64,000 nucleotides of DNA from NCBI GenBank assembly GCA_043765155.1, contig JAYUJP010000053.1, positions 14,116 to 78,115 of the forward strand, in the 5' to 3' direction. Both the position numbers and the translations under genes were made by a program. The stretch is from a bacterium (lineage in GTDB: Bacteria > Patescibacteriota > Minisyncoccia > Phycocordibacterales > UBA5272). The first letter of the stretch is position 1; every line of letters starts with the position of its first letter. The notes beneath the pieces were generated by a model that did no database searches, had not been told where the DNA came from, and saw only the letters and a list, made by a program, of their open reading frames with translations. Positions 10,741-40,234 of this stretch are shown here, piece after piece.

Positions 10741-11193
10741 ATGAAAATAAATTATAAATATACAACAATAATATTAGCATTAGCTCTTATTGTAACTTAT
10801 TCGTGGCACTGGAATGATATTTTCTTTCACAAAAATAACGAAATGAAAATGGGAGTGGAGATGAATAGTATGCACAAAATGCCGGGCGGAGGCATGATGA
10901 ATATGTCAGATATACAAGGCAATAGCATGCAAAAAGATATGAGCATGGACTCTATGATGACGGATATGCTAGCAAATATGAAAGGCAAGGCTGGCGCTGA
11001 GCTAGAAAAAACATTTTTACAAGACATGATAATACATCATCAAGGTGCCGTAGACATGTCTACAGCATTATTAAAAGATAAATCGGTGAGGCAAGAATTA
11101 GCAAAATTTGCAAATGATATTATCTCAGCGCAGACCAGCGAAATATCAATGCAAAAGAAATGGTTAAAAGATTGGTTCAATATAAACAAATAA
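10741..11193 (+). CDS. DUF305-family protein with Met-rich N-terminal region (putative periplasmic Cu-binding)
   Basis: Signal/TM segment, then a Met-rich stretch (MHKMPGGGMMNMSDIQGNSMQKDMSMDSMMTDM), then the MIIHHQGAVDM motif typical of DUF305. Confidence 0.65.
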   Translation: MKINYKYTTIILALALIVTYSWHWNDIFFHKNNEMKMGVEMNSMHKMPGGGMMNMSDIQGNSMQKDMSMDSMMTDMLANMKGKAGAELEKTFLQDMIIHHQGAVDMSTALLKDKSVRQELAKFANDIISAQTSEISMQKKWLKDWFNINK

Positions 11194-11194
11194 T

Positions 11195-11674
11195 ATGAGT
11201 AGCCCTGAAAAATCTTTTGCCTCTCATATGCTACGCTATGTAGGGGTAGGACTAATATCTGGATCAATAGTTCACGCTGGTACACTTGGTGGTAATGTAA
11301 CTCAGTATGTAGCGCTAATAGTCCTAGGAGTAATAGCATTTATATATGGCACATATTTAGAATATGATAATAGGATAGATAAAAAGTTTGTATCATTTAT
11401 ATTGATCTCGGTAGTGATATCTATCGGGACCGGCATGGTTAGCGGCGGCACTCAGCATTATCTAGACGGTCCGGTATTTGCGTCTATTATATTACCTATT
11501 GGTCTACTTGTCGCGTATATCGCTTATTTATATAGGGATTACGGAAATAAAATGTCCATAAAAAGAATCTTAACTGCTATATGTCTAACTTCTCTACTTA
11601 GTTTTGTACTTTATACAACAGCACATCAGATACCAACGGCAGAAAATCATCACGCCTTAAACGAGGAACACTAA
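11195..11674 (+). CDS. Hypothetical integral membrane protein, 159 aa
   Basis: Four to five hydrophobic helices. Last gene of the csoR operon. Confidence 0.5.
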   Translation: MSSPEKSFASHMLRYVGVGLISGSIVHAGTLGGNVTQYVALIVLGVIAFIYGTYLEYDNRIDKKFVSFILISVVISIGTGMVSGGTQHYLDGPVFASIILPIGLLVAYIAYLYRDYGNKMSIKRILTAICLTSLLSFVLYTTAHQIPTAENHHALNEEH

Positions 11675-27077: not shown

Positions 27078-27527
27078 TTACGCACAGACTTTACATAGTC
27101 CATATACTTCAAAATTAACAATATTTGAAGTGTTAAACTTTTTACTTTTCTTAACTATTTTCTTAAGTAGGTCCTCAGTATTTATACCTGAGACTTTTTC
27201 TATAGTCTCGCAGTTATTACATATAACTTTGTGATGATATTCGCCTGTATTAACTTCATAATGAGCGTGACTATGGCTATCACTTGATATTTTATGTGCT
27301 GACTTTTTAATAATACCCACCTGCTCCAAAGAGGTAAGATTGCGATATACAGTAGCCTGATCTATGTCATACTTTTTCTTTATGTCCTCGATTAACTTAT
27401 GAGCTGAGATTGGTGACTTGGACTTAGCTATTTTAGTCAATATATTATATCTATGCTCAGTATATTTTAATCCGGCCTCTTTTATCATTTCGACTATTTC
27501 ATTTTGGGTGTATGATTGCATTTCCAT
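27078..27527 (-). CDS. Fur-family metalloregulator (Fur/Zur/PerR)
   Basis: ATVYRNL DNA-binding helix, HSHAH...H-x-C-x2-C and C-x2-C metal sites. Confidence 0.85.
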   Translation of the reverse strand: MEMQSYTQNEIVEMIKEAGLKYTEHRYNILTKIAKSKSPISAHKLIEDIKKKYDIDQATVYRNLTSLEQVGIIKKSAHKISSDSHSHAHYEVNTGEYHHKVICNNCETIEKVSGINTEDLLKKIVKKSKKFNTSNIVNFEVYGLCKVCA

Positions 27528-29232: not shown

Positions 29233-30315
29233 CTAACCTAAGACTAAATTAAGTCCTAGACCTGCTACTGCCACAAAAACTGTATAAAAAGATATTAAGC
29301 GTATTGCCGTCATCTTATCATACATCTTTGCTAGTATAAACATTTGCGGTATGCTGGTGAGCGTAGCCGCTAACATCCAAGCTACTAGGGTTCCAGTAGC
29401 AACGCTACCAAATACTCCGGCCATAAGGGCGAGTGATGAAGCCGCATTCACATCAAGCGGTACCCCAATCAAAGCAATTAGCGGAGCATACCATGAGTAT
29501 GCAGCTGACTTGAGCAGCTCGACAGGCACTGCGTTAAAATGAAATAACGCCGCCGCGAATGCTCCAGTCAGAATGAGAGCAACTAATAACTTAGCCATCA
29601 AATGCCTCGTCTCGCGAAAAGCTTGCAGAAATACGTTCGTCTTAACTTCACAGTCAAAACATTTGACTACTTCTGTATTAAGCTTCTCTCGAGTAATACC
29701 GATCCAGCCTGCGAACTGCGCTGTAAGTAATGCCCCGACAAAACCAATAACTAGGTAAGCTGCCACAAGTGGTATGCCGCCAATATAAGCCATAACTGCT
29801 ATAGCAAATACGTTCATAGACGGTGCCGCAAATAAAAATACAGCTGATGACTTGGTTGACGCCCCGCCTTGTATTAGCCCTGCGTATATAGGTGCCACCA
29901 CACAAGAGCAGACAGGGGTAATCATACCAAGCAAGAATCCTTTTGACTGCCCCACTAATCCATCATCGCCGATACTATTTTTCAGATACCTTGTAGGTAT
30001 AGAAAGGCGTATAACTGACAAGACGTAAGTAGTGACTCCCAGAATAATTGGGAGCTTGACCACCTCATAGATAAAGTACGCAGCAGTCTTTTGCACTACT
30101 CCAGGCTCCATCCAAGACGTAGACCATGCTCCGATATATTTTCCAAAATTAGCCACTGATTTTTCTGGATTCCACATATTAACTTTGAAGTTCGCATTAC
30201 CAATCGAATGCGTTACAACTAGCCATATCACTCCTAATATAGCTAAAAATATGGCCATAAAGACCAGATTTTTATTTATATTATTTTCTACTTTATGATC
30301 CATAATTTTCTCCAA
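29233..30315 (-). CDS. ArsP/UPF0718-family permease (TP-x-CSC motif)
   Basis: ITPVCSCVVAPI motif, about 8 TM helices. GC is well above neighbours. A canonical SD (GGAG, 8 nt upstream) is present, unlike native genes. Confidence 0.6.
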   Translation of the reverse strand: MEKIMDHKVENNINKNLVFMAIFLAILGVIWLVVTHSIGNANFKVNMWNPEKSVANFGKYIGAWSTSWMEPGVVQKTAAYFIYEVVKLPIILGVTTYVLSVIRLSIPTRYLKNSIGDDGLVGQSKGFLLGMITPVCSCVVAPIYAGLIQGGASTKSSAVFLFAAPSMNVFAIAVMAYIGGIPLVAAYLVIGFVGALLTAQFAGWIGITREKLNTEVVKCFDCEVKTNVFLQAFRETRHLMAKLLVALILTGAFAAALFHFNAVPVELLKSAAYSWYAPLIALIGVPLDVNAASSLALMAGVFGSVATGTLVAWMLAATLTSIPQMFILAKMYDKMTAIRLISFYTVFVAVAGLGLNLVLG

Positions 30316-30379
30316 TTTTTAAGTTAAGAACTATTTCGGTTTTACCCTGGCAATAATACTATCACAAAAATATTACGGA

Positions 30380-30394
30380 TGCAAGTAACTTGCA
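30380..30394. promoter_or_regulatory. Perfect 7-1-7 inverted repeat TGCAAGT-A-ACTTGCA in a divergent promoter region (candidate operator)
   Basis: Read directly. Lies between the permease (-) and the COG0523 gene (+). Confidence 0.4.
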
Positions 30395-30427
30395 TTTAGA
30401 CAAAATATACTATATAATAATTATCAT

Positions 30428-31888
30428 ATGAAAACCAACGAAAACCAAAATCAAAATAAAAATGGAAAACCTAATTTAAATTCAGAAGAAGCTAAAGAAT
30501 TACAGCAAGAATCTAAGCTAACAAAACCGATTAGAAAAATACCAGTTACAGTATTGACTGGATTTTTAGGTTCTGGTAAGACTACTCTTTTAAATAAAAT
30601 TTTAGATGAGTGCAAAAAGAATGGAGAGAAAGTTGGTATTATAGAAAATGAATTTGGAGCTATATCTATTGATACTGACTTAATCTTAGGAAAAGATGAA
30701 GAGATAATGGAGGTCAAAAATGGCTGTATGTGCTGTACGGTTAGGCGTGACCTAGTTAGAGTGCTCAGAACCCTCATAGAAAAAGGTAATCCATATGATA
30801 GGTTAATAATAGAAACTTCTGGAGTCGCTAACCCGTCACCAATAGCTCAGACATTTTATGGCCTAGAAGATATATACGAGAATTTTGATTTGCAAGGTAT
30901 AGTTACTGTAGTAGACGCTAAAAATATATTAGACCAAGTAAAAACAGAGCAAGTGATACAAGAGCAAATTGCTTTTGCTGACCTACTAATAATGTCAAAA
31001 ATAGACCTTGTAGACGAGAAACAATTAGCTGAAGTTAATGCTATGGTCAATACTCTTTCTAACGGTGTTGAGATATTAGATATGAGCAATGCTCACGCTG
31101 ACCTAAATAAAATAATAAACTTGTCTGGCTTTAATCCTGAGAGGGCGTCAATCATAGACCCAAGATTTATGCAGCAAGATACACCGTATAAGTGGATAGG
31201 AGCTTATCATTTTGAAAAGGGAATATACAATATGGACTTTTATGCATCTGGTACATCTCATACTTCTGAGTTATTTTTACTAAGAAAAGAAGATAAAACT
31301 ATAGACCAGGAACTAATAAATAATAAATCAAAAGAAATATTTGACACTTTTTTCCTAGATCAAAAAGCCATGCGGGCAAATGGTAAAATAACAGTGAGCG
31401 ATGTCACATTAGAAAAAGCTTTAGAAGATAATAAGGTAGCAATTAAAATAGAAATAAAAGAAGCTGGAGACTATATGCTAGTCACTCAGCATATACCTGA
31501 AAGCATAATAATAAAAAGTGAGCAGAATGACAAAGTGGAAGTAAAATATTATCTAGAAAATAAAATAGAAACAAAATATAAAGAAAAAGAGGGTCTAGGC
31601 TCGGTCGCTATGACTAGCGATGAAGATGCTGACCCGATTGATATAGACGGATTTTTAGAGTGGCTAATAATGAATCCGGAATATAATATACTCAGAATAA
31701 AAGGTATATTTAAAATCAAAGGTAAAGAAAATCTTTTTGTAGTGCACAGAGTAAATACTGTGACTGAGACATATATGATACCAAGAAAAAATCAAGATCA
31801 GAAGACACAATTTGTCTGTATAGGTTACAGGTTGAATAAATTAGATATACAAAAAGAATTTAACTTTATATTTAATAAAGGGGAATAA
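30428..31888 (+). CDS. COG0523-family G3E GTPase (CobW/ZigA/YeiR-like metallochaperone), paralog 1
   Basis: P-loop GFLGSGKTTLLN, the metal-binding GCMCCT motif, and a CobW_C-like C-terminus. Confidence 0.85.
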   Translation: MKTNENQNQNKNGKPNLNSEEAKELQQESKLTKPIRKIPVTVLTGFLGSGKTTLLNKILDECKKNGEKVGIIENEFGAISIDTDLILGKDEEIMEVKNGCMCCTVRRDLVRVLRTLIEKGNPYDRLIIETSGVANPSPIAQTFYGLEDIYENFDLQGIVTVVDAKNILDQVKTEQVIQEQIAFADLLIMSKIDLVDEKQLAEVNAMVNTLSNGVEILDMSNAHADLNKIINLSGFNPERASIIDPRFMQQDTPYKWIGAYHFEKGIYNMDFYASGTSHTSELFLLRKEDKTIDQELINNKSKEIFDTFFLDQKAMRANGKITVSDVTLEKALEDNKVAIKIEIKEAGDYMLVTQHIPESIIIKSEQNDKVEVKYYLENKIETKYKEKEGLGSVAMTSDEDADPIDIDGFLEWLIMNPEYNILRIKGIFKIKGKENLFVVHRVNTVTETYMIPRKNQDQKTQFVCIGYRLNKLDIQKEFNFIFNKGE

Positions 31889-31920: not shown

Positions 31921-33306
31921 ATGCAAGATGAAAATGCCAAAGGTGAAAAAATTATAAACAAAAAAATACCCGTAACCGTTATAACTGGATTTTTGGGTGC
32001 TGGTAAGACCACTCTTATCAATAGCATACTTGGCGGCAAGCATGGTATAAAGTTCGCAATTATAGAAAATGAATTTGGAGAAATAGGTATAGATAATGAG
32101 ATACTCGAACATGCCGAGGAGGAAATAGTCGAGATGAATAATGGCTGTATATGTTGTACTGTACGAGGTGACCTCATAAATATAATTAAAAAACTTTTGG
32201 CCAGAGACGTGCCTCCAGAGCATATAGTCATAGAGACTACTGGTCTCGCCGATCCGTCACCTGTGGCTCAGACATTTTTAACTGATTCAGAGCTAATGCA
32301 AAAAACTTATCTGGACTCGATACTTACAATAGTGGATGCCAAGCATATGTATATACATCTAGAGAGTAGCCCGCAATACAAAGATCAAATAGCTTTTGCT
32401 GATACTATACTGCTTAATAAAATAGACTTGGTGGATGCCAAAGAAATAGAAAAAATAGAAAATGACATACTTAAAATAAATAGATTCGCAAAAATATATA
32501 AAGTCCAAAATAGTATTATAGACATAAAGAAAATACTCGGCATAAATGGCTTTGATGTAGAAAAAGCTTTGGATGTTAATTCAAAATTCTTAGAAATAGA
32601 ATACCCTTTTGAATACGGAGCTCTATATAACTTTAAGGCAGATGATTACACTCTAGAATTAAATAAAAATGGTGACGAGGATAAGATAAAAATCTTACTC
32701 GGTCCTATGACTAGGTCCATAGAGATGTCAGACCTTATGACAATAGCTAATCCGCTCGCCCTACTATTTTCAGAAAAAAATCAAGATATATTACTTGATG
32801 GCATGAGCATACCTCAGGAGCAGCAAGTCTTTACTTATGGATTAAAAGACTCGGTTAATATATTCAAATTTAGCCTAACTCAAGATTCTAACTTTTTCTT
32901 ATTTTCTGAGCATCACGCTAATGAGTTTGATTTAAAAATAAAAAATAGTAAAGGAGAAATAATAAAGCCTGCTGTATACAATAATTTTAAACCAGAACAT
33001 GAGCATGACGATGAAGTGTCTAGTGTGGGTATAGAAATAAAGGGGGAACTTGATCCTGCTATGTTTATCTATTATATAGACACGATTATAAAAGATTATG
33101 GTGTAGACCTTTATAGATACAAAGGAGTAATAGCTATAAACGGTGAGGATAAAAAGATAGTATTGCAGGGAGTGCATATGCTATTTAATATGACTCCATC
33201 TAAAAACTGGAATAATGAGGAGAAAATTAGTAAAATAATATTTATAGGTAAAAATCTAGATAGAGATATCTTAACTCAGGGATTTATAAGTTGTAAGATA
33301 AAGTAA
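31921..33306 (+). CDS. COG0523-family G3E GTPase, paralog 2 (tandem duplicate)
   Basis: GFLGAGKTTLIN and GCICCT motifs. Collinear with paralog 1. Confidence 0.85.
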   Translation: MQDENAKGEKIINKKIPVTVITGFLGAGKTTLINSILGGKHGIKFAIIENEFGEIGIDNEILEHAEEEIVEMNNGCICCTVRGDLINIIKKLLARDVPPEHIVIETTGLADPSPVAQTFLTDSELMQKTYLDSILTIVDAKHMYIHLESSPQYKDQIAFADTILLNKIDLVDAKEIEKIENDILKINRFAKIYKVQNSIIDIKKILGINGFDVEKALDVNSKFLEIEYPFEYGALYNFKADDYTLELNKNGDEDKIKILLGPMTRSIEMSDLMTIANPLALLFSEKNQDILLDGMSIPQEQQVFTYGLKDSVNIFKFSLTQDSNFFLFSEHHANEFDLKIKNSKGEIIKPAVYNNFKPEHEHDDEVSSVGIEIKGELDPAMFIYYIDTIIKDYGVDLYRYKGVIAINGEDKKIVLQGVHMLFNMTPSKNWNNEEKISKIIFIGKNLDRDILTQGFISCKIK

Positions 33307-33328
33307 ATATAAAAACTATTTTGTCATT

Positions 33329-33361
33329 AAAAGAGCCGCCCGTAGGGCGGCTCTTTTACTT
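33329..33361. terminator. Bidirectional terminator
   Basis: AAAGAGCCGCCC-GTA-GGGCGGCTCTTT hairpin. Confidence 0.7.
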
Positions 33362-33379
33362 ATTTTTTATATATATCAC

Positions 33380-34450
33380 TTAGTGAGAGTGCCCACTTAA
33401 ATGCGAATGACCATGTGAATCCCCTACTCTATCTTTTAGATCTGCTACCTTTATAAACCTCACCGCGAAGTAAGTAGTGAGTGGTATAGCCAAAAGTAAG
33501 CCAATAGAAGAAATGGTCGCCCTAAAAATCTCAGTAGCAACAACTTCAGAATTTAAAAGTATATTAAGCGGTATATCGGAAGTATATAAGAACATAAGCT
33601 GCGGTATAGAGCTAGCCACATAGGCTAGTATCAGAGTGTTTATCATCGCGCCGCCATGATCACGTCCTATATTCATAGCCCTCTTATAGCAGTCATAATT
33701 GGTGATATTTTTATTCAGAGTTTTTATCTCTTCTACAATTTTGGCCTGAGTTATCGCCCCATCATCTACTGCCCCTATCACTCCGATTATTATGCTAGCT
33801 ATTATTAGGAACGATAAGTTAATATAACTACCAGGACCACTCATTCCATTTTCTATATAATAAGATCCAGCATCGGTATAACCACCCAGCTTTGAGTATA
33901 TAATAATAGCATAGGACATTAACACTGTTATAAATATAGAAATACTACAACCAAGTAGAGCTGCGTACGTGACCTTACTCTTACCATGTGTTATAAACAT
34001 ACTGAGAGCAAGCAATAATGTCGCTATGCCGGCCGAAAGTAGTACTGGATTATAGCCTTTGGCCATAGCTGGTATAAGAACTAGAAATATAACTAAAAAG
34101 GATACGGTAAGTGAGAATAACGCCCTAAATCCTTTGAGACCAAAAATACTTATAACTACAGCACAAAATATAAATATAGACCCATATATTTCTGGGCTGC
34201 GTATCTTGTCACCAAGCGCAATATAAGAAGAGTCTGGAGCCTGCACTTGCTTAACATATACCCTGTCTCCGACCGAGTATTTATTACCCTCAGAATACAC
34301 CTCAGTGGTCGAAGACACTCCACTCTTATCTAAAAATTTTATAATATAATTGGGTGGTAATACTTTATCATTACTATATATTTCACTACTTGTGTTATTT
34401 TTAATTTCTATTAGCTCGCCCGGTATATACTGCGTTTTGTTTTGATTCAT
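33380..34450 (-). CDS. YibE/F-like polytopic membrane protein with C-terminal His-rich tail
   Basis: N-terminal extracytoplasmic segment, then about 7 TM helices. C-terminus GDSHGHSHLSGHSH. Confidence 0.5.
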   Translation of the reverse strand: MNQNKTQYIPGELIEIKNNTSSEIYSNDKVLPPNYIIKFLDKSGVSSTTEVYSEGNKYSVGDRVYVKQVQAPDSSYIALGDKIRSPEIYGSIFIFCAVVISIFGLKGFRALFSLTVSFLVIFLVLIPAMAKGYNPVLLSAGIATLLLALSMFITHGKSKVTYAALLGCSISIFITVLMSYAIIIYSKLGGYTDAGSYYIENGMSGPGSYINLSFLIIASIIIGVIGAVDDGAITQAKIVEEIKTLNKNITNYDCYKRAMNIGRDHGGAMINTLILAYVASSIPQLMFLYTSDIPLNILLNSEVVATEIFRATISSIGLLLAIPLTTYFAVRFIKVADLKDRVGDSHGHSHLSGHSH

Positions 34451-34500
34451 AAAAATTATTTTGAATAAAGATTTATTTTGATTGTCATATTATAACATAA

Positions 34501-34560
34501 AAAAGCCTCGCATACTTTTTGAGTAGCGAGGCTTAGCGGCTGACCTTACGGTCAGCCGCA
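34501..34560 (-). terminator. Tandem hairpins (GNRA-loop hairpin plus T-tract hairpin) terminating the 34572-35189 gene
   Basis: GCGGCTGACC-GTAA-GGTCAGCCGC and GCCTCGC...GCGAGGC followed by TTTTTT on the minus strand. Confidence 0.65.
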
Positions 34561-34571
34561 CTAACAAAAAA

Positions 34572-35189
34572 TCAATGCACATGCACATGCTTACCTTTTA
34601 ATAAAAGAAAAAAGCTTGAAATTACGCAGCCGATCACCCCACCAATCATCACAGAGTGTAATATCCCTCCGCTATTATTGTGTACATGTCCTCCCATACT
34701 TTTTTGCAGCTCGAGAGCCTGCTTAAGTAGTGGTGACATTGCAAACGGTGACTGTGTAGGCGCTGGCACATAAAAGTACCAGAACATAACGCCAATAATT
34801 ACAAGCGCAGAAACAAGCAATACATGAGCGTACTTACCATAATGCACCCTAGCCTCGACAAAGAGAAACATGAGGTCAAAAATAGCGTGCACCCCGTAAA
34901 ATGCTAGCTCACTGTTGCTGTAGTGATTACCATGCAGCGCATGATGATACCACTCTATGCCCATATGAGCGACTAAGAAAAATGAAGGCGCATAGCCATG
35001 ACTTTTGTGAGCCCATAACGCAGCGACTAATCCAGCAAATAATCCTAACACCATATGCCATGAACCAAGGCCCATCTGGGATACATGAGAGATTAGTAAT
35101 CCAACATAAGCTAGCAAGAAAAATATAAAGAACGATTTGTGGTGACTTAACACCTTTTGAAACGAAAACAATTTTTGATGAGTTAACAT
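34572..35189 (-). CDS. His-rich integral membrane protein, 205 aa
   Basis: About 15 His including a C-terminal HVHVH. Elevated GC. A canonical SD (AGGAG, 7 nt upstream) is present. Confidence 0.55.
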   Translation of the reverse strand: MLTHQKLFSFQKVLSHHKSFFIFFLLAYVGLLISHVSQMGLGSWHMVLGLFAGLVAALWAHKSHGYAPSFFLVAHMGIEWYHHALHGNHYSNSELAFYGVHAIFDLMFLFVEARVHYGKYAHVLLVSALVIIGVMFWYFYVPAPTQSPFAMSPLLKQALELQKSMGGHVHNNSGGILHSVMIGGVIGCVISSFFLLLKGKHVHVH

Positions 35190-35202
35190 CTAAATCTCCT
35201 AA

Positions 35203-35232
35203 GAAAAAAGGCGTCACGTGTGACGCCTTTAT
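35203..35232 (-). terminator. Rho-independent terminator
   Basis: GGCGTCA-CGTG-TGACGCC followed by TTTTTT on the minus strand. Confidence 0.65.
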
Positions 35233-35251
35233 AAAAGTTTTTGAATTAATC

Positions 35252-35941
35252 TTATGCAGCTAGCGCAAGCGGCTCTGCAACAGCTTCTCGGACTGCTATT
35301 AATGCCTGACGTACATCATTTGACATCTCAAGAGACGCTAATGGTAGAACATTTAGCTCAGTCCACATCCGCTCATAAGACCTAACCTCGGCTTCACACA
35401 TATCAGTAGGCAGTACACGAATCGTGTCAAAGTCTACATTGTGAACCATTTTCCCAACTCCTTCACCCCAGCTACGCCAGTGATTCAGAGCGCGATAAAA
35501 GTTTGTATTTTCGAAATTACTCTCGATAGACGTGATGCCGCAGCCACAATCATGATACGATACAAATCGCATTCCATATTTTGCCAATGCTTTTTGTAGC
35601 AAATCCACATTACGCATCCCTAAGCAAAAAGCTAAGAGAGCATCATGAAATGGGATCATTCCCTCTGTCTGATAGCGCTCACCAGTCTCAAAATGCATTG
35701 CCGAGAATGGCATTAAGGCTACACCGCTAATGTTATGTGACCATTTTTGATGATCAAGACGATGAGCGAGTGTAACAAGAGCTACAAATACCGCAGCTTT
35801 AGGCTTGGCGTTATCGGTAATTGCGATATAAATATCGTCAATTACTTTGGGGCTAAAGCAGCCGTGACGAGATTTCAAAATCTCCACGTCACCCTTGTTA
35901 ACTGGGCGATCCCAATTATTACCTGATTGAACTGTACACAT
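35252..35941 (-). CDS. Cys-containing hypothetical protein, 229 aa, probably horizontally acquired
   Basis: GC is around 45%, versus about 33% locally. A canonical SD (AAAGGAG, 7 nt upstream) is present. Contains a YHDCGCG motif. No family assigned. Confidence 0.5.
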   Translation of the reverse strand: MCTVQSGNNWDRPVNKGDVEILKSRHGCFSPKVIDDIYIAITDNAKPKAAVFVALVTLAHRLDHQKWSHNISGVALMPFSAMHFETGERYQTEGMIPFHDALLAFCLGMRNVDLLQKALAKYGMRFVSYHDCGCGITSIESNFENTNFYRALNHWRSWGEGVGKMVHNVDFDTIRVLPTDMCEAEVRSYERMWTELNVLPLASLEMSNDVRQALIAVREAVAEPLALAA

Positions 35942-35998
35942 AAGCTTCTCCTTTGTTGTGCGTTAAAAAGAACTACTAACTTTGCGGGAATTATTTCC

Positions 35999-36036
35999 CA
36001 CATATTTATTTACAAAAAATTATAAACAAATATGTG
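35999..36036. promoter_or_regulatory. 16-6-16 near-perfect inverted repeat (candidate operator) upstream of the 35252-35941 gene
   Basis: CACATATTTATTTACA-aaaaat-TATAAACAAATATGTG. 14 of 16 arm positions are complementary. Confidence 0.5.
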
Positions 36037-36056
36037 AGAAATAATATATTTAAAAA

Positions 36057-36917
36057 CTATGCTTTTGATTTTTTAATAGTATGAAAATCTTGCATACTAT
36101 TTAGATTACCTCTCCTTCTTAAACTTTTAACTTTTGCTAAAACATTTTGCATTGACTCTTTGGTCTCATCTTTTACTAAGGCATAATCATAACTCATAAC
36201 GTTTTGGTCAAAAGGAATCTCACCTAAAATATTCATACTATTTTTAGCGACAAAATCATGATAAAAATCATTTTCGGCCGGCTTATTAACAACAGAGAAG
36301 CATGGTATCATTGTCTTTCTGCATATTTCTTGTATCTGCTCAAATACTTTTATACTATTTCTGTGCGGCTCTACAACACCAATAACAGCGTCTATACCAG
36401 CATATAATCCATAATTAAGCATATCGGCACCAGCCACGCTATCTATAACTACAAATTCATCACCCTCACTGAGTAGTCCTAGATAATACTTGAGCGGGCC
36501 AGACAGTCCGTGCGCACATTTGTCGCTAAATAAAACATCAGGGCTACCAAGACCTACATTTATAAGCGATATCTTTTCTGTGACTTTATTACTGATTGAC
36601 TGAGTATAGTCATCTGCAGGCTTAAGTGTAAAAGTTGGGAGCGCTCTTTCCGTCTCTGTGATAAGGCGTGACCACTGCTTATCCTCAGCAAGGCCAACAG
36701 CCTCCATAAATATCTTGTCTGTCTTGTGCATTAGTATTGTCTTTTCTGGATCAAGACCAAGATTACTGGTCAGGTCCATATTGTGATCAGCATCAATAGC
36801 CAACACAAAATTACCCATATCCTCTATGGTTTTAACAGCTAGCCAAGATACTGAACTTTTTCCGCTTCCTCCTTTTCCTACAAATGCAATTTTCATAATT
36901 AGAATAATATTGTACAC
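36057..36917 (-). CDS. CooC/MinD-family P-loop ATPase (deviant Walker A; metallocentre-maturation-type)
   Basis: IAFVGKGGSGKSS...LAIDADHNMDLTSNLGL, which matches the CooC-type pattern KGGVGKT...DADPN.NL. Confidence 0.65.
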   Translation of the reverse strand: MYNIILIMKIAFVGKGGSGKSSVSWLAVKTIEDMGNFVLAIDADHNMDLTSNLGLDPEKTILMHKTDKIFMEAVGLAEDKQWSRLITETERALPTFTLKPADDYTQSISNKVTEKISLINVGLGSPDVLFSDKCAHGLSGPLKYYLGLLSEGDEFVVIDSVAGADMLNYGLYAGIDAVIGVVEPHRNSIKVFEQIQEICRKTMIPCFSVVNKPAENDFYHDFVAKNSMNILGEIPFDQNVMSYDYALVKDETKESMQNVLAKVKSLRRRGNLNSMQDFHTIKKSKA

Positions 36918-36943
36918 TAAATGCGAATAACTTGCAAGTATTA

Positions 36944-38110
36944 CTATTTTATTACCCCACCGCCCAGCACTCTATTATTTTTGTCATACATAACTAAACT
37001 TTGGCCGCTCACACACAAAATATTACTATTAGTAGTAAAAAATTGTTTTTCTGCATTATATTTTATTTCAAATAATTCTCCTCTGTACCTAGATCTAGCC
37101 AATACTTGATTTTTAAATATTTCTAATTCTTTTTTATTATTTATATCTATCAATATATTTACTTCTTCTAAATATATTTTATTATTAGAATCTGGATTAT
37201 TTAAATTATTATCTTTTGAATAAATTACACTTTGCGTTAGTTTATCTTGCGAGACTATTAAAACATTATTTTCTAAGTCTTTTTCTATTACAAAATAAGG
37301 TGTATTGTTTTCATTTTTATCTGAGTTTTTTTGATTTATTACAAAGTCGTGGCGCTCACCTATCGTATACAATATTACACCTTTATGCTCACCAATAATT
37401 TCTCCTAATTCATTTTTGGTTTGCCCCTTTTCTGGATTAAGCTCTCGTATAAGAAAATCTTTTACACTCACGTCACCACCCAGCATGCATATACCCTGAC
37501 TATCTTTTTTGTCCGCTACCCACAAGTTATTTTCTTCTGCTATTTTTCTTATCTGTGATTTTTCCAGGTTAGCAAGTGGGAATAATATCCGGCTCAAGTT
37601 TTCTTTTTGTATCTGATATAAAAAATAAGACTGATCTTTGGTCTTGTCCTCTGCAGCAAAGAGTTCGTATCTTTCTGTACTATCTTTTTCTATTTTAGAA
37701 CTCTTAACTATTTTTGCATAATGTCCCGTTGCTATATAATCAGCACCATTACTCATAGCATAATCTAAAAATGCTCCAAACTTTATATACTTGTTACACA
37801 TCACGTCCGGATTAGGGGTTCTATTATTTTTATATTCTGACAAGAAATAATCTATCACAAACTTTTTATATTCTGACTCTAGATCTAATGTTATAAACGG
37901 TATGTCTAGCTGGGCACATACACGCATAGCATCCAGCCTATCCTCTTTCCAGGTGCACTCAATATAATCTGGCTGCCAAGTCTTGATAAAAAACCCCGTA
38001 ATATTATGCCCAGCATTTTTAAGCAGTAGCGCCGTCACGCTACTATCTACGCCGCCTGACATGCCGACAAATATTTTTTCTACTTTTTGTTTTTCTTTAC
38101 CGAAATTCAT
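36944..38110 (-). CDS. mnmA: tRNA-specific 2-thiouridylase MnmA (with N-rich insertion)
   Basis: PP-loop VGMSGGVDSS, catalytic Cys, 388 aa. Confidence 0.9.
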   Translation of the reverse strand: MNFGKEKQKVEKIFVGMSGGVDSSVTALLLKNAGHNITGFFIKTWQPDYIECTWKEDRLDAMRVCAQLDIPFITLDLESEYKKFVIDYFLSEYKNNRTPNPDVMCNKYIKFGAFLDYAMSNGADYIATGHYAKIVKSSKIEKDSTERYELFAAEDKTKDQSYFLYQIQKENLSRILFPLANLEKSQIRKIAEENNLWVADKKDSQGICMLGGDVSVKDFLIRELNPEKGQTKNELGEIIGEHKGVILYTIGERHDFVINQKNSDKNENNTPYFVIEKDLENNVLIVSQDKLTQSVIYSKDNNLNNPDSNNKIYLEEVNILIDINNKKELEIFKNQVLARSRYRGELFEIKYNAEKQFFTTNSNILCVSGQSLVMYDKNNRVLGGGVIK

Positions 38111-38165: not shown

Positions 38166-38675
38166 ATGAATAACACTTTTAAGAAATATCTGCCTAGTCT
38201 GGTATATGGTGGTAGTGACGGGGCGGTATCTTATTTTTCACTTATGGCCGGCGCCTACGGCGCCGGTGTCCCTCTAAAAATACTTATAGCAATTGGAATA
38301 TCAAATGTAATGGCTGATGGTCTTTCTATGGCTAGCGCCGACTATTTATCTGAGGACTCTAAAAATCAAAAAAATACCAATCCTTTATTTGATGCTTTTT
38401 TTACTTTTATATCTTTTGTTTTGCTTGGTCTTATACCACTAATGCCAACGCTATATGCTTATAATTTTTATGGGCCAGACTCATTACTTTCTTTTTATAC
38501 ATTTATAGTATCGACGCTTGTTACCCTCTGCGCATTTATCTTTATAGGTTATGTACGCGGTAAAGTTTTAAAAAGAAATTTATTTAGAACGATATTACAG
38601 TCTGTATTTATATGCTCCGCTTCAGCAATAGTCGCTTACTTTGTTGGTGAATATGTGGCTAAGATTTTGATATAA
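38166..38675 (+). CDS. VIT1/CCC1-family Fe/Mn transporter (short form)
   Basis: GGSDGAVSYFSLMAGAYGAG...NVMADGLSMASADYLSE. Confidence 0.7.
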   Translation: MNNTFKKYLPSLVYGGSDGAVSYFSLMAGAYGAGVPLKILIAIGISNVMADGLSMASADYLSEDSKNQKNTNPLFDAFFTFISFVLLGLIPLMPTLYAYNFYGPDSLLSFYTFIVSTLVTLCAFIFIGYVRGKVLKRNLFRTILQSVFICSASAIVAYFVGEYVAKILI

Positions 38676-38695: not shown

Positions 38696-40234
38696 CTATT
38701 TAAACTTTTCTAGCTCTGAAGTTGATATTTTAACTTGGAACATACCAATAGCATAAGCCGCTACTTGATACTGACCAAAATGTATAACTAGAACTTCTTT
38801 ATCTGTTGTATTGTCTGTACTTATATCCTCAAACCAAAAAGCAGAATAATTAGTACTTGTTGCCGCTGTACCATCTTCTAACCATGCTACGTCGACCATG
38901 TCAGCCGCACCATTTTCTATCATCTGATTTTTAAGATCTACTCTACTATAGCCCTCTATATATTTATATATATCAAGACTTTTCCCATCTTTATCATAAA
39001 CAGTTTTGCTATAAACCTCTTTTAGATTTTCTACATTTTTATTAGTCTTTTTATCAATAACATACGCATTATTAAAAGTTAGCGGGTGAGCGCCGCCAGT
39101 ATAAGTATAATTATTATAAACATAAGAAATATAATTCCTAGTTTCTGATTTTTCATAACTTGAGTCCCACTCATAAGGCCTATTATCATATTCACTCAGC
39201 CCTCTATCGCTATCTTTTTTAAATGGCGAGTATATATCTAGTATCCAGCTCTTAACGGCTTTATTATTTTTGGGATATTCTATTTTTGCATTTATCTTTG
39301 TATTACTCTCTGTGAATATTTCTTTCTCATCTTCATCTATATTTTCTTTTTTATTATTAACACTTGTAATGTCTCCAAAAATATTAGAGGTATTATTATT
39401 TTTGTTTATAATATTTTCTCCGTTGAGAATCTGACTCATAAGTCCTATTATAACTCCTAAAAATATAAATAACACTCTCTTTAGAATTTTTTTATCATCA
39501 TATTCACGTAGGTACGAGGTGAGGTCATAAGCGCCGACATATAAAAAGCTAGCAGCAGATATGGCAAGTAAGGCACTACTTAAATCTTCTAACTTTATTA
39601 TATAAAATAGGGCGACTCCTATAAACATAAAAGCAGAGGATGCAATAGTTAGCCAAAATAAATTTTTACTATTTTTATCATCCTCTTGTTTGTTCTTAGA
39701 ACTTCTTATCATCACGCCGCTCATCATAGGTATATGATGCAAAGATATAGCGATAGTAGTTATAATACCCAAAAATATATTTACAGCAAAGCTACTCGCT
39801 ATCACCACTCCATCAGCTACGCTGTGTATGCTTTGCCCTATAAATATAGAATATGACCCATTTTGTTTTAACTCTGAACTTTCTATATTGTGTAAGTTTA
39901 TCTGTTTATGAGTGTGAGTATCATGCTCATCATCATGCTCATGATTATGTGTAGTCCAGCCAAGTATATAAAAACATAATAATGAAAATAAGAATACTAA
40001 ACTATTTATATTTATCCCAAGAATACTCAAGCTTGACCCGCCAGAATACACTTCGGGCAATAGATGGACTATAAGAACCGTCAACATAATACCGATAGCT
40101 ACAGCTACTACATTTTTAGTTTTATTTGATCCCTCTCTTATAAAAGGACGACGTATCACGTACGCTAGCGCTATAAGTATAGCCAATACCGATATAACTG
40201 GCAAGATTATTTGATTTGTTATTATATTTTGCAT
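38696..40234 (-). CDS. Fusion protein: ZIP-family (ZupT-like) metal transporter plus a C-terminal DUF4163/DUF3298 (RsiV/PdaC-like) extracytoplasmic domain
   Basis: N-terminal half has HNHEHDDEHDTHTH, HSVADGVVIASSF and SLHHIP (ZIP signatures). C-terminal half has YTYTGGAHP (DUF3298 signature). Confidence 0.65.
   Translation of the reverse strand: MQNIITNQIILPVISVLAILIALAYVIRRPFIREGSNKTKNVVAVAIGIMLTVLIVHLLPEVYSGGSSLSILGININSLVFLFSLLCFYILGWTTHNHEHDDEHDTHTHKQINLHNIESSELKQNGSYSIFIGQSIHSVADGVVIASSFAVNIFLGIITTIAISLHHIPMMSGVMIRSSKNKQEDDKNSKNLFWLTIASSAFMFIGVALFYIIKLEDLSSALLAISAASFLYVGAYDLTSYLREYDDKKILKRVLFIFLGVIIGLMSQILNGENIINKNNNTSNIFGDITSVNNKKENIDEDEKEIFTESNTKINAKIEYPKNNKAVKSWILDIYSPFKKDSDRGLSEYDNRPYEWDSSYEKSETRNYISYVYNNYTYTGGAHPLTFNNAYVIDKKTNKNVENLKEVYSKTVYDKDGKSLDIYKYIEGYSRVDLKNQMIENGAADMVDVAWLEDGTAATSTNYSAFWFEDISTDNTTDKEVLVIHFGQYQVAAYAIGMFQVKISTSELEKFK

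Follow-up and report, generated by a model that had tools for sequence, protein, structure and literature searches.

The 64,000-nucleotide stretch of patescibacterial DNA analysed here (contig JAYUJP010000053.1; 'the window' in the following) carries four consecutive genes on the minus strand, which run from position 36917 down to 33380, downstream of the tRNA 2-thiouridylase gene mnmA. They encode a CooC-type deviant-Walker-A ATPase, a cysteine-containing protein of 229 amino acids (aa), a histidine-rich 205-aa membrane protein and a YibE/F-family membrane protein. We estimate at about 55% the probability that the locus represents a conserved metal-starvation regulon of the Patescibacteria, that is, a Zur-type module of ATP-driven metallochaperone and transport functions, which also occurs in a few other phyla. 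The evidence comes from a gene neighbourhood that recurs among genomes, a common Fur-family operator and an invariant metal-ligand-like motif in the ATPase.

An original prediction, made from the letters of the window alone, had described the four genes together with the Shine-Dalgarno (SD) sequences AAAGGAG before the 229-aa and AGGAG before the 205-aa open reading frame (ORF) and with YibE/F at the end, all of which are present. It had grouped them with a flanking pair of COG0523 genes, a VIT1 gene and a ZIP-fusion gene, each of which is borne out by Pfam. The features on which the argument rests are the following.

36057-36896, minus strand: CooC-type deviant-Walker-A ATPase, 279 aa (Pfam CbiA, AAA_31, Fer4_NifH)
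35252-35941, minus strand: 229-aa predicted partner protein, long form of the Cys-hairpin partner family (ORF, context)
34572-35189, minus strand: 205-aa His-rich polytopic membrane protein, strain-variable accessory gene (family alignment)
33380-34450, minus strand: YibE/F-family membrane protein, 356 aa, with a C-terminal His-rich tail (Pfam PF07907)
36919-36939: predicted Fur-family 7-1-7 operator AAATGCGAATAACTTGCAAGT in the ATPase promoter (position weight matrix (PWM) score 18.5)
30377-30397: second predicted Fur-family operator GGATGCAAGTAACTTGCATTT in the divergent region between the ArsP-like gene and COG0523 #1 (PWM score 20.3)
30428-31888 and 31921-33306, plus strand: COG0523 GTPases in tandem, 486 and 461 aa (Pfam cobW, CobW_C)
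29233-30315, minus strand: ArsP_1-type permease (Pfam ArsP_1, 1.8e-22)
27078-27527, minus strand: Fur-family regulator (precomputed Pfam FUR)

The gene neighbourhood of the ATPase is conserved

The neighbourhood sample comprised 80 species genomes that encode a relative of the ATPase; ORFs were called and clustered, and genes were counted within 6 kb of the ATPase. A Fur-family gene was present in 53 of the 80 loci, typically in divergent orientation (FUR< ATPase>), and also at loci L097 and L099. YibE/F occurred in 33 loci, usually directly after Fur, and the tiny gaps between the two genes (-74 to +59 bp) are consistent with an operon. ZIP transporters (Pfam, 9e-51) were found in 18 loci, COG0523 genes in 10, and ZnuA (1e-79) with an ABC-3 permease (2.5e-55) in several. 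In the window, the assignment of the pair to COG0523 is based on matches to cobW (1.7e-54 and 6.9e-58) and CobW_C (1.4e-10 and 2.9e-17) and on the CxCC motif, which appears as GCMCC and GCICC.

This Fur/ZIP/COG0523/YibE/F neighbourhood recurs in dozens of species from three phyla, with a common operator. Because it is conserved in other genomes, the grouping of the four genes is more than chance, and an accidental adjacency was rejected on this ground. A horizontal island comprising the whole module was likewise dismissed, as synteny is conserved phylum-wide, and so was a defence system, for which there was no PADLOC match.

Beyond the Patescibacteria, a metagenome-assembled genome of the Bdellovibrionales shows the order FUR>COG0523>ATPase>229-aa-like. 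In the cyanobacteria Calothrix PCC 7716 (L055, 5995-11257) and Dulcicalothrix PCC 7102 (L057, 5995-10101), the gene for a C-x-H ATPase shares 4 nt with a hemB paralog (Pfam ALAD, 2.4e-152); the neighbours of this ATPase gene are a second, longer ATPase paralog with a KKCYHSK motif, a threonyl-tRNA synthetase (ThrRS) paralog, Fur and COG0523. In these two cyanobacteria the ATPase may act on behalf of paralogous enzymes and not of a Cys-hairpin partner. Anabaena carries thrS2 in an operon that Zur represses and zinc limitation induces (PMC4787780).

A Fur-family operator marks the module promoters

The intergenic regions between Fur and ATPase genes contain a palindrome with the consensus aaaTGCAAnTnAnTTGCAttt. 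Its 7-1-7 form, TGCAAnTnAnTTGCA, with the layout TGCAAnT-n-AnTTGCA, marks the promoters of the module; a 7-1-7 layout is typical of Fur-family boxes. Of 77 loci, 53 have the palindrome 5' of the ATPase gene, where its density is 3.4 per kb compared to 0.17 per kb overall. A PWM trained on 81 boxes that precede ATPase genes of other genomes returned 134 sites with a score of at least 13 in about 850 kb. These sites precede ATPase (87) and Fur genes (67), 13 of 18 ZIP, 5 of 10 COG0523 and 2 of 5 ZnuA genes as well as partner genes, and only 18 of 947 other genes. Further operator-bearing genes include those for a cation diffusion facilitator (CDF) transporter, an ArsP_1 permease, a distant 205-aa relative and an arginase-family protein.

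Exactly two strong operators are present in the window, and the next-best site scores 9.5. The site at 30377-30397 is a perfect TGCAAGTAACTTGCA (TGCAAN5TTGCA) and has the highest score of the window, while the one at 36919-36939 overlaps the -35 element of the sole promoter-like site 5' of the ATPase (TTGCAA-17-TACAAT, 36937 to 36909). Among 300 simulated 64-kb sequences, eight had one site scoring at least 18.5 and none had two. The Fur-family regulator of the window is presumed to bind this operator.

The metal module as first proposed stands in part. Synteny and the operator hold the four genes and the COG0523 pair together; the motif does not support membership of VIT1 and of the ZIP-PdaC/DUF3298 fusion, as neither has a strong operator in the window (2.1 is the highest score close to the ZIP start), whereas plain ZIP genes elsewhere are usually operator-bearing. 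The ArsP_1 permease (PVCSC motif) has an operator-bearing divergent promoter in common with the COG0523 pair, and at L051, an unrelated locus, an ArsP_1 gene bears an operator as well. This suggests that ArsP_1 permeases belong to the same metal regulon.

The ATPase carries Cys-x-His at the position of the CooC metal ligands

The longest ORF of the ATPase gene extends over 36057-36917. As all relatives start with MKIAF in the family alignment, we place the true start at the ATG at 36896. Sequence comparison indicates that the family is widespread in Patescibacteria. More than 1280 relatives were found, of which the best 120 are 65-99% identical, and the 65-77% identity across the Paceibacterota sample ranks the ATPase among the most conserved patescibacterial proteins. 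Named relatives come from Candidatus Paceibacterota, Nomurabacteria and Pacebacteria, which places the window in a patescibacterial (CPR) genome, and some bear the JGI label 'CooC1'. The contig is also present in ENA and Logan assemblies.

A family profile of 29 diverse members was compared with the PDB. The best and only full-length match was CooC1 (3kje, E = 4.7e-24); other MinD, ParA, NifH and ArsA structures align around the P-loop only. Together with the Pfam matches, this agrees with the CooC-like ATPase that had been predicted. Invariant among the 29 members are GKGGSGKS, a deviant Walker A of the MinD-class form GKGGxGK[ST], as well as DADHNMD, Cys127, His129, Lys136 and Asp152. In CooC1, the positions of Cys127 and His129 are taken by C112 and C114, a 'strictly conserved' pair that provides Zn or Ni ligands at the dimer interface (PMC6006190). 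Since all 29 members have Cys-x-His instead of Cys-x-Cys, the family lacks one defining feature of CooC. If the dimer forms as in CooC, this two-ligand motif would create a Cys2His2 site.

A Cys-hairpin protein is the regular neighbour of the ATPase

The 229-aa protein starts with MC and contains the motifs PFSA, FHD, HDCGCG and RS. Neither the protein nor 32 members of its family matched Pfam, NCBIfam or PADLOC, and its sequence profile had no match in the PDB. A word-indexed search returned two relatives (96% and 69% identical) and three of the 205-aa protein; the wider families were retrieved by HMMER and by searches at ATPase loci. A full HMMER scan of 1.84 billion proteins gave 34 representatives of the 229-aa family.

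The original prediction had been made dependent on whether homologs of the 229-aa protein co-occur with CooC-like ATPases and lack a well-known unrelated function. In a profile search of the 80 ATPase-centred loci, 20 of 21 family members directly adjoin the ATPase, and for relatives with E < 1e-10 the ATPase was adjacent in all four contexts retrieved from the partner side; none of the homologs has a known unrelated function. The partner-side contexts include YibEF<FUR<ZIP>ATPase>partner (L099), ATPase>partner>COG0523 (L100) and, on one short contig, FUR>partner. At L001, the 69%-identical relative likewise lies behind an ATPase gene, though in other surroundings, 3' of murG. There, a second ATPase-like gene (10749-11426, minus strand) is convergent to the partner gene, and the first ATPase gene comes after a 205-aa homolog; the order of the module has changed at this locus, yet its genes have stayed together.

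Almost every gene directly downstream of the ATPase encodes a hydrophobic-CC/CxC/CxCxC motif. Those outside the 229-aa family (p229) fall in the clusters c4, c18, c22, c23 and c81, all of which are motif-bearing. By hhalign, p229 is linked to c22 (99%) and c81 (96%), and c4 to c18 (96%); the link between p229 and c4 is weak (33%), nonetheless the order of motifs is the same. An alignment of 32 partner sequences shows no variation at Met1, Cys132 and Gly133 and conservation of 90% or more at Ser80, His99 and Arg156; roughly four in five of the sequences begin with Met-Cys. Across the families the length varies from 116 to about 290 aa, and the Cys motif alone is truly universal. By gene order and motif, the 229-aa protein is the regular predicted partner of the ATPase across Patescibacteria. 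This speaks against the horizontal acquisition of its gene that had been suggested; recent gain or loss applies to the 205-aa gene only.

An AlphaFold (AF2) model of the 229-aa protein built with 32 aligned sequences reached a predicted local distance difference test score (pLDDT) of 94.9 and a predicted template modelling score (pTM) of 0.91; with three sequences, the pLDDT was 35. The model displays a compact alpha/beta domain in which the Cys motif sits at the turn joining strands 124-129 and 133-138. Foldseek returned no neighbour of this model in the PDB and BFVD (best E = 1.2, TM < 0.25).

In nine species (L020-L026, L032, L035, L049), a 145-aa Cys/His-containing protein (cluster c9) is encoded 3' of the short partner c4. 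The order is ATPase>c4>c9, at times followed by a 205-aa homolog. This protein has no Pfam match and no detectable kinship with the 229-aa family, and it may be a further component that is replaced in the window by the long-form partner. Cys-containing fragments 5' of 205-aa homologs in L014 and L016 turned out not to be 229-aa homologs; the L014 fragment bears ICCNGC, a motif characteristic of c18, the short partner family.

A predicted RNA element separates the ATPase and partner genes

The spacer that separates the ATPase gene from the partner gene (35942-36056, minus strand) contains two features.

35990-36045, minus strand: AU-rich intercistronic RNA hairpin, 26 bp, directly 3' of the ATPase stop codon (fold z = -5.65)
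35967-35973, minus strand: GUUCUUU leader motif 5' of the partner SD, possible anti-SD (enrichment in spacers)

The stable hairpin at the ATPase stop contains G.U pairs, which function on the transcribed strand only; in a closely related strain (L002), a U-to-C change converts one of them to G-C. Comparable hairpins (z < -2) were found in 22 of 31 other loci. The second motif is located 3-40 nt before the partner start. Of 45 ATPase-to-partner spacers, 19 contain GTTCTTT; its density is 3.55 per kb compared to a background of 0.19 per kb (about 19-fold), and GTTC[CT]TT precedes every partner family. The spacer element is also present in L017, L030, L040, L054, L078, L084 and others. Because UUCUUU can pair with the SD sequence AAAGGA, the hairpin-GUUCUUU element may act in translational control. 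A riboswitch was considered and rejected, as there was no Rfam match above threshold.

Two histidine-rich membrane proteins accompany the module

YibE/F matches Pfam PF07907 with 8.1e-62 and 209 bits, far above the cut-off of 27.2, over 239 of 241 model positions. The family is common in Firmicutes; we found no literature on its function. In the window the protein ends in GDSHGHSHLSGHSH, and an HxHxH tail is present in 31 of 34 YibE/F copies.

The 205-aa protein contains 18 His and five to six predicted hydrophobic segments. Ten His are invariant within its family, in the motifs AHKxHGY, HMxIEWYxHAxHGxHY and FHGxHAxxD (family alignment). Neither the protein nor eight family members had a match in Pfam, NCBIfam, PADLOC or the PDB. 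At the sequence level, the pattern of invariant His (HxxH, HHxxH and HxxH within hydrophobic segments) faintly resembles the histidine boxes of membrane di-iron enzymes. The gene is missing in the strain with the 96%-identical 229-aa protein, owing to a clean indel of about 700 bp that lies between the terminator of the 229-aa gene and the YibE/F promoter. Homologs end the ATPase operon in L023, L025, L027 and L029 and lie 5' of the ATPase in L001, while a distantly related gene in L082 bears an operator of its own. As homologs recur at the ATPase locus, we regard the 205-aa gene as a mobile accessory of the module and not as unrelated foreign DNA.

Proposed mechanism and comparison with known systems

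In the proposed regulon, the Fur-family repressor would leave its operator DNA when the sensed metal, most likely zinc, falls; we infer that it acts through promoter occlusion. The ATPase would dimerise around a metal held by Cys127 and His129 of each subunit, in a site placed where CooC holds Ni or Zn with four cysteines. It would spend ATP on the exchange of metal with the Cys-hairpin partner, in either direction; the partner would be either carrier or client. YibE/F and, where present, the 205-aa protein would move or hold metal at the membrane, in transport or storage. The exchange between NTPase and partner is modelled by analogy on CooC, HypB-HypA and UreG-UreE (PMC9164220, PMC6006190). 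We further put forward, tentatively and at somewhat less than even odds, that the locus encodes a zinc-allocation system driven by ATP that has so far gone unrecognised. A Cys2His2 dimer of the CooC lineage, a Cys-hairpin protein, a YibE/F transporter and RNA-tuned translation of the partner would make up this system, which would be a core part of the patescibacterial Zur regulon, with scattered occurrence in Cyanobacteria and Bdellovibrionota.

The ATPase family and CooC belong to the same branch of MinD-class P-loop ATPases and agree in where the two-residue metal motif sits, presumably at the dimer interface. Small metal-binding accessories stand alongside both: CooT uses Cys2 (PMC6006190), and the 229-aa family also starts with Met-Cys. 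However, the module differs from CooC in its Cys-x-His motif, in the lack of a nearby carbon monoxide dehydrogenase (CODH) and in its Fur-family operator and zinc-type transporters, and the 229-aa partner is unrelated to CooT or CooJ. HypB-HypA and UreG-UreE likewise combine an NTPase that dimerises around a metal with a small metal-exchanging partner, but they represent other families in another metal context; hydrogenase and urease are absent here, and the partner has no detectable fold relative.

COG0523 proteins of the ZigA/ZagA/YeiR type are also nucleotide-driven putative metallochaperones that are induced by zinc limitation and carry a Cys-rich CxCC motif. Here they are part of the same regulon and sometimes of one operon with the ATPase (L052, L100). 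They are G3E GTPases rather than MinD-class ATPases, though, and have no dedicated Cys-hairpin partner. The coexistence of both systems in the window suggests non-redundant roles. The Calothrix and Dulcicalothrix C-x-H ATPases, beside ThrRS and HemB paralogs, Fur and COG0523, recall the Anabaena thrS2 operon; the literature searched on that operon does not mention such an ATPase, and the patescibacterial ATPase is paired with a Cys-hairpin protein and YibE/F, not with paralogous enzymes.

The logic of an NTPase, a small metal-binding partner, a transporter and a metal sensor is known; the ATPase subtype, the partner and the regulon setting appear to be new. No literature came to light that connects ATPases of the CooC type with Zur regulons, nor any that describes such a system. 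P-loop ATPase metallochaperones of the MinD class are known for nickel only (CooC), as listed in a 2022 review (PMC9164220), and zinc allocation is credited to COG0523 GTPases. If the proposal holds, the ATPase would be the first MinD-class metallochaperone for a metal beyond nickel, and YibE/F would receive its first functional assignment. Metal rationing in small-genome bacteria would have to be seen differently if it included a second system, driven by ATP and equipped with a partner of its own. The analysis provides testable hypotheses for three families without a function (YibE/F, the Cys-hairpin partner and the His-rich 205-aa protein), and the operator offers a handle for regulon prediction in uncultivated Patescibacteria.

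Alternative explanations

Several observations weigh against a Zur-type module of this kind. Physical interaction of ATPase and partner and their binding of metal are inferred by analogy. The PWM hits upstream of ATPase genes are circular, as the PWM was trained on these regions, so that only the hits at ZIP, COG0523, ZnuA and ArsP genes and at the COG0523 site of the window are independent of the training. Two very distant 229-aa relatives, on the short contigs L098 and L101, have no ATPase nearby. The Fur gene of the window lies 9 kb from the ATPase and lacks a box of its own. As a hairpin precedes the 229-aa gene and terminators precede YibE/F, co-transcription with the ATPase is uncertain. 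With respect to the signal, the regulator scores best with PerR in NCBIfam (53 bits; Zur and Fur 42 bits each, with every score well short of its cut-off), Fur has a Bcp peroxiredoxin gene next to it in seven loci, and a CDF exporter and an arginase-family gene carry operators; Mn, Fe, Ni or peroxide could thus be the signal instead of Zn.

The latter observations would fit a module that serves another metal or stress, such as Ni or Co (Nur-like), Fe or Mn (Fur/Mur) or peroxide (PerR), with the ATPase keeping a CooC-like nickel role. The closest solved relative of the ATPase is indeed the nickel chaperone CooC1, VIT1 is close by in the window, and ZnuA-type and ZIP transporters may also carry Mn or Fe. 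However, no CODH (cooS/acs), urease, hydrogenase or other Ni enzyme was seen among the annotated neighbours in the window or in the 80 neighbourhoods, which leaves the role in Ni or Fe-S insertion suggested by the original prediction without indication. Cys2His2 is typical of zinc sites, and the cyanobacterial ATPases have ThrRS and HemB paralogs as context. COG0523, ZnuA/ABC-3 and ZIP under one Fur-family box are a classic Zur signature (PMC2770081). On this gene content and the cyanobacterial context, zinc is the most likely sensed metal, and we consider a different signal improbable.

A better-placed, though still unlikely, alternative concerns the role of the partner within the module. It could be a client, a small metalloenzyme and perhaps a zinc-independent starvation substitute, into which the ATPase inserts metal (ligands Cys2, His99 and Cys132) as CooC matures CODH. 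The near-invariant Ser80, His99, Cys132-Gly133 and Arg156, together with conserved charged residues, resemble a catalytic set, and the predicted compact domain (pLDDT 95) would suit an enzyme. Replacement paralogs are common in Zur regulons (PMC10957091), and the Calothrix ATPase gene is followed directly by a hemB paralog in place of the gene for a Cys-hairpin protein. Yet a partner of such variable length, in which only the Cys motif is universal, fits a metal-handling adaptor better than an enzyme, and it bears no likeness to a known enzyme fold or family. Very improbable, finally, is a ParA/MinD-type positioning ATPase with the downstream protein as its adaptor, next to metal genes by accident or horizontal transfer. 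The deviant Walker A, the CbiA/ParA-type Pfam matches, the basic C-terminal tail of the ATPase and the raised GC of two genes would allow for it. However, NCBIfam scores are 24 bits for minD_arch (cut-off 201.75) and 17 bits for RepA (cut-off 348), CooC is the best structural relative with the position of the metal motif conserved, and no ParB, parS or MinE was found near the ATPase. The recurrent neighbourhood with its common operator and the lack of a defence-system match speak against it as well.

Further features of the locus

36944-38110, minus strand: mnmA, tRNA 2-thiouridylase (Pfam tRNA_Me_trans, 5.6e-75)
38166-38675: VIT1 gene (Pfam)
38696-40234: ZIP-PdaC/DUF3298 fusion gene (Pfam)
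35207-35230, minus strand: intrinsic terminator 3' of the 229-aa gene (10-bp stem and U-run)
34503-34559, minus strand: double hairpin terminator 3' of the 205-aa gene (minimum free energy (MFE) -40.9 kcal/mol, z = -7.1)
33328-33358: bidirectional terminator between YibE/F and COG0523 #2 (14-bp stem, MFE -24.6 kcal/mol, z = -6.4)

mnmA adjoins the ATPase locus in nine of the 80 species in addition to the window (L030-L038, L049, L013). Its orientation differs: it lies upstream on the same strand in the window and is convergent elsewhere. The adjacency may reflect leftover synteny or a functional link, for example through a metal- or Fe-S-dependent MnmA.

Each of the four genes had been expected to possess its own terminator. 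Canonical hairpins with a U-run follow the 229-aa, 205-aa and YibE/F genes, with UUUUUU directly 3' of the second hairpin in the double terminator of the 205-aa gene, but the 26-bp AU-rich stem after the ATPase has no adjacent U-run. The locus had also been called partly foreign, which base composition supports weakly. Gene GC across the window averages 35.7% (standard deviation 4.0). The 229-aa gene has the highest GC, 43.8% (z = 2.0), and the 205-aa gene, at 41.7%, the highest GC at third codon positions (z = 2.4). Both are at the top of the range without being outliers, and the ArsP-like gene reaches a comparable 42.6%.

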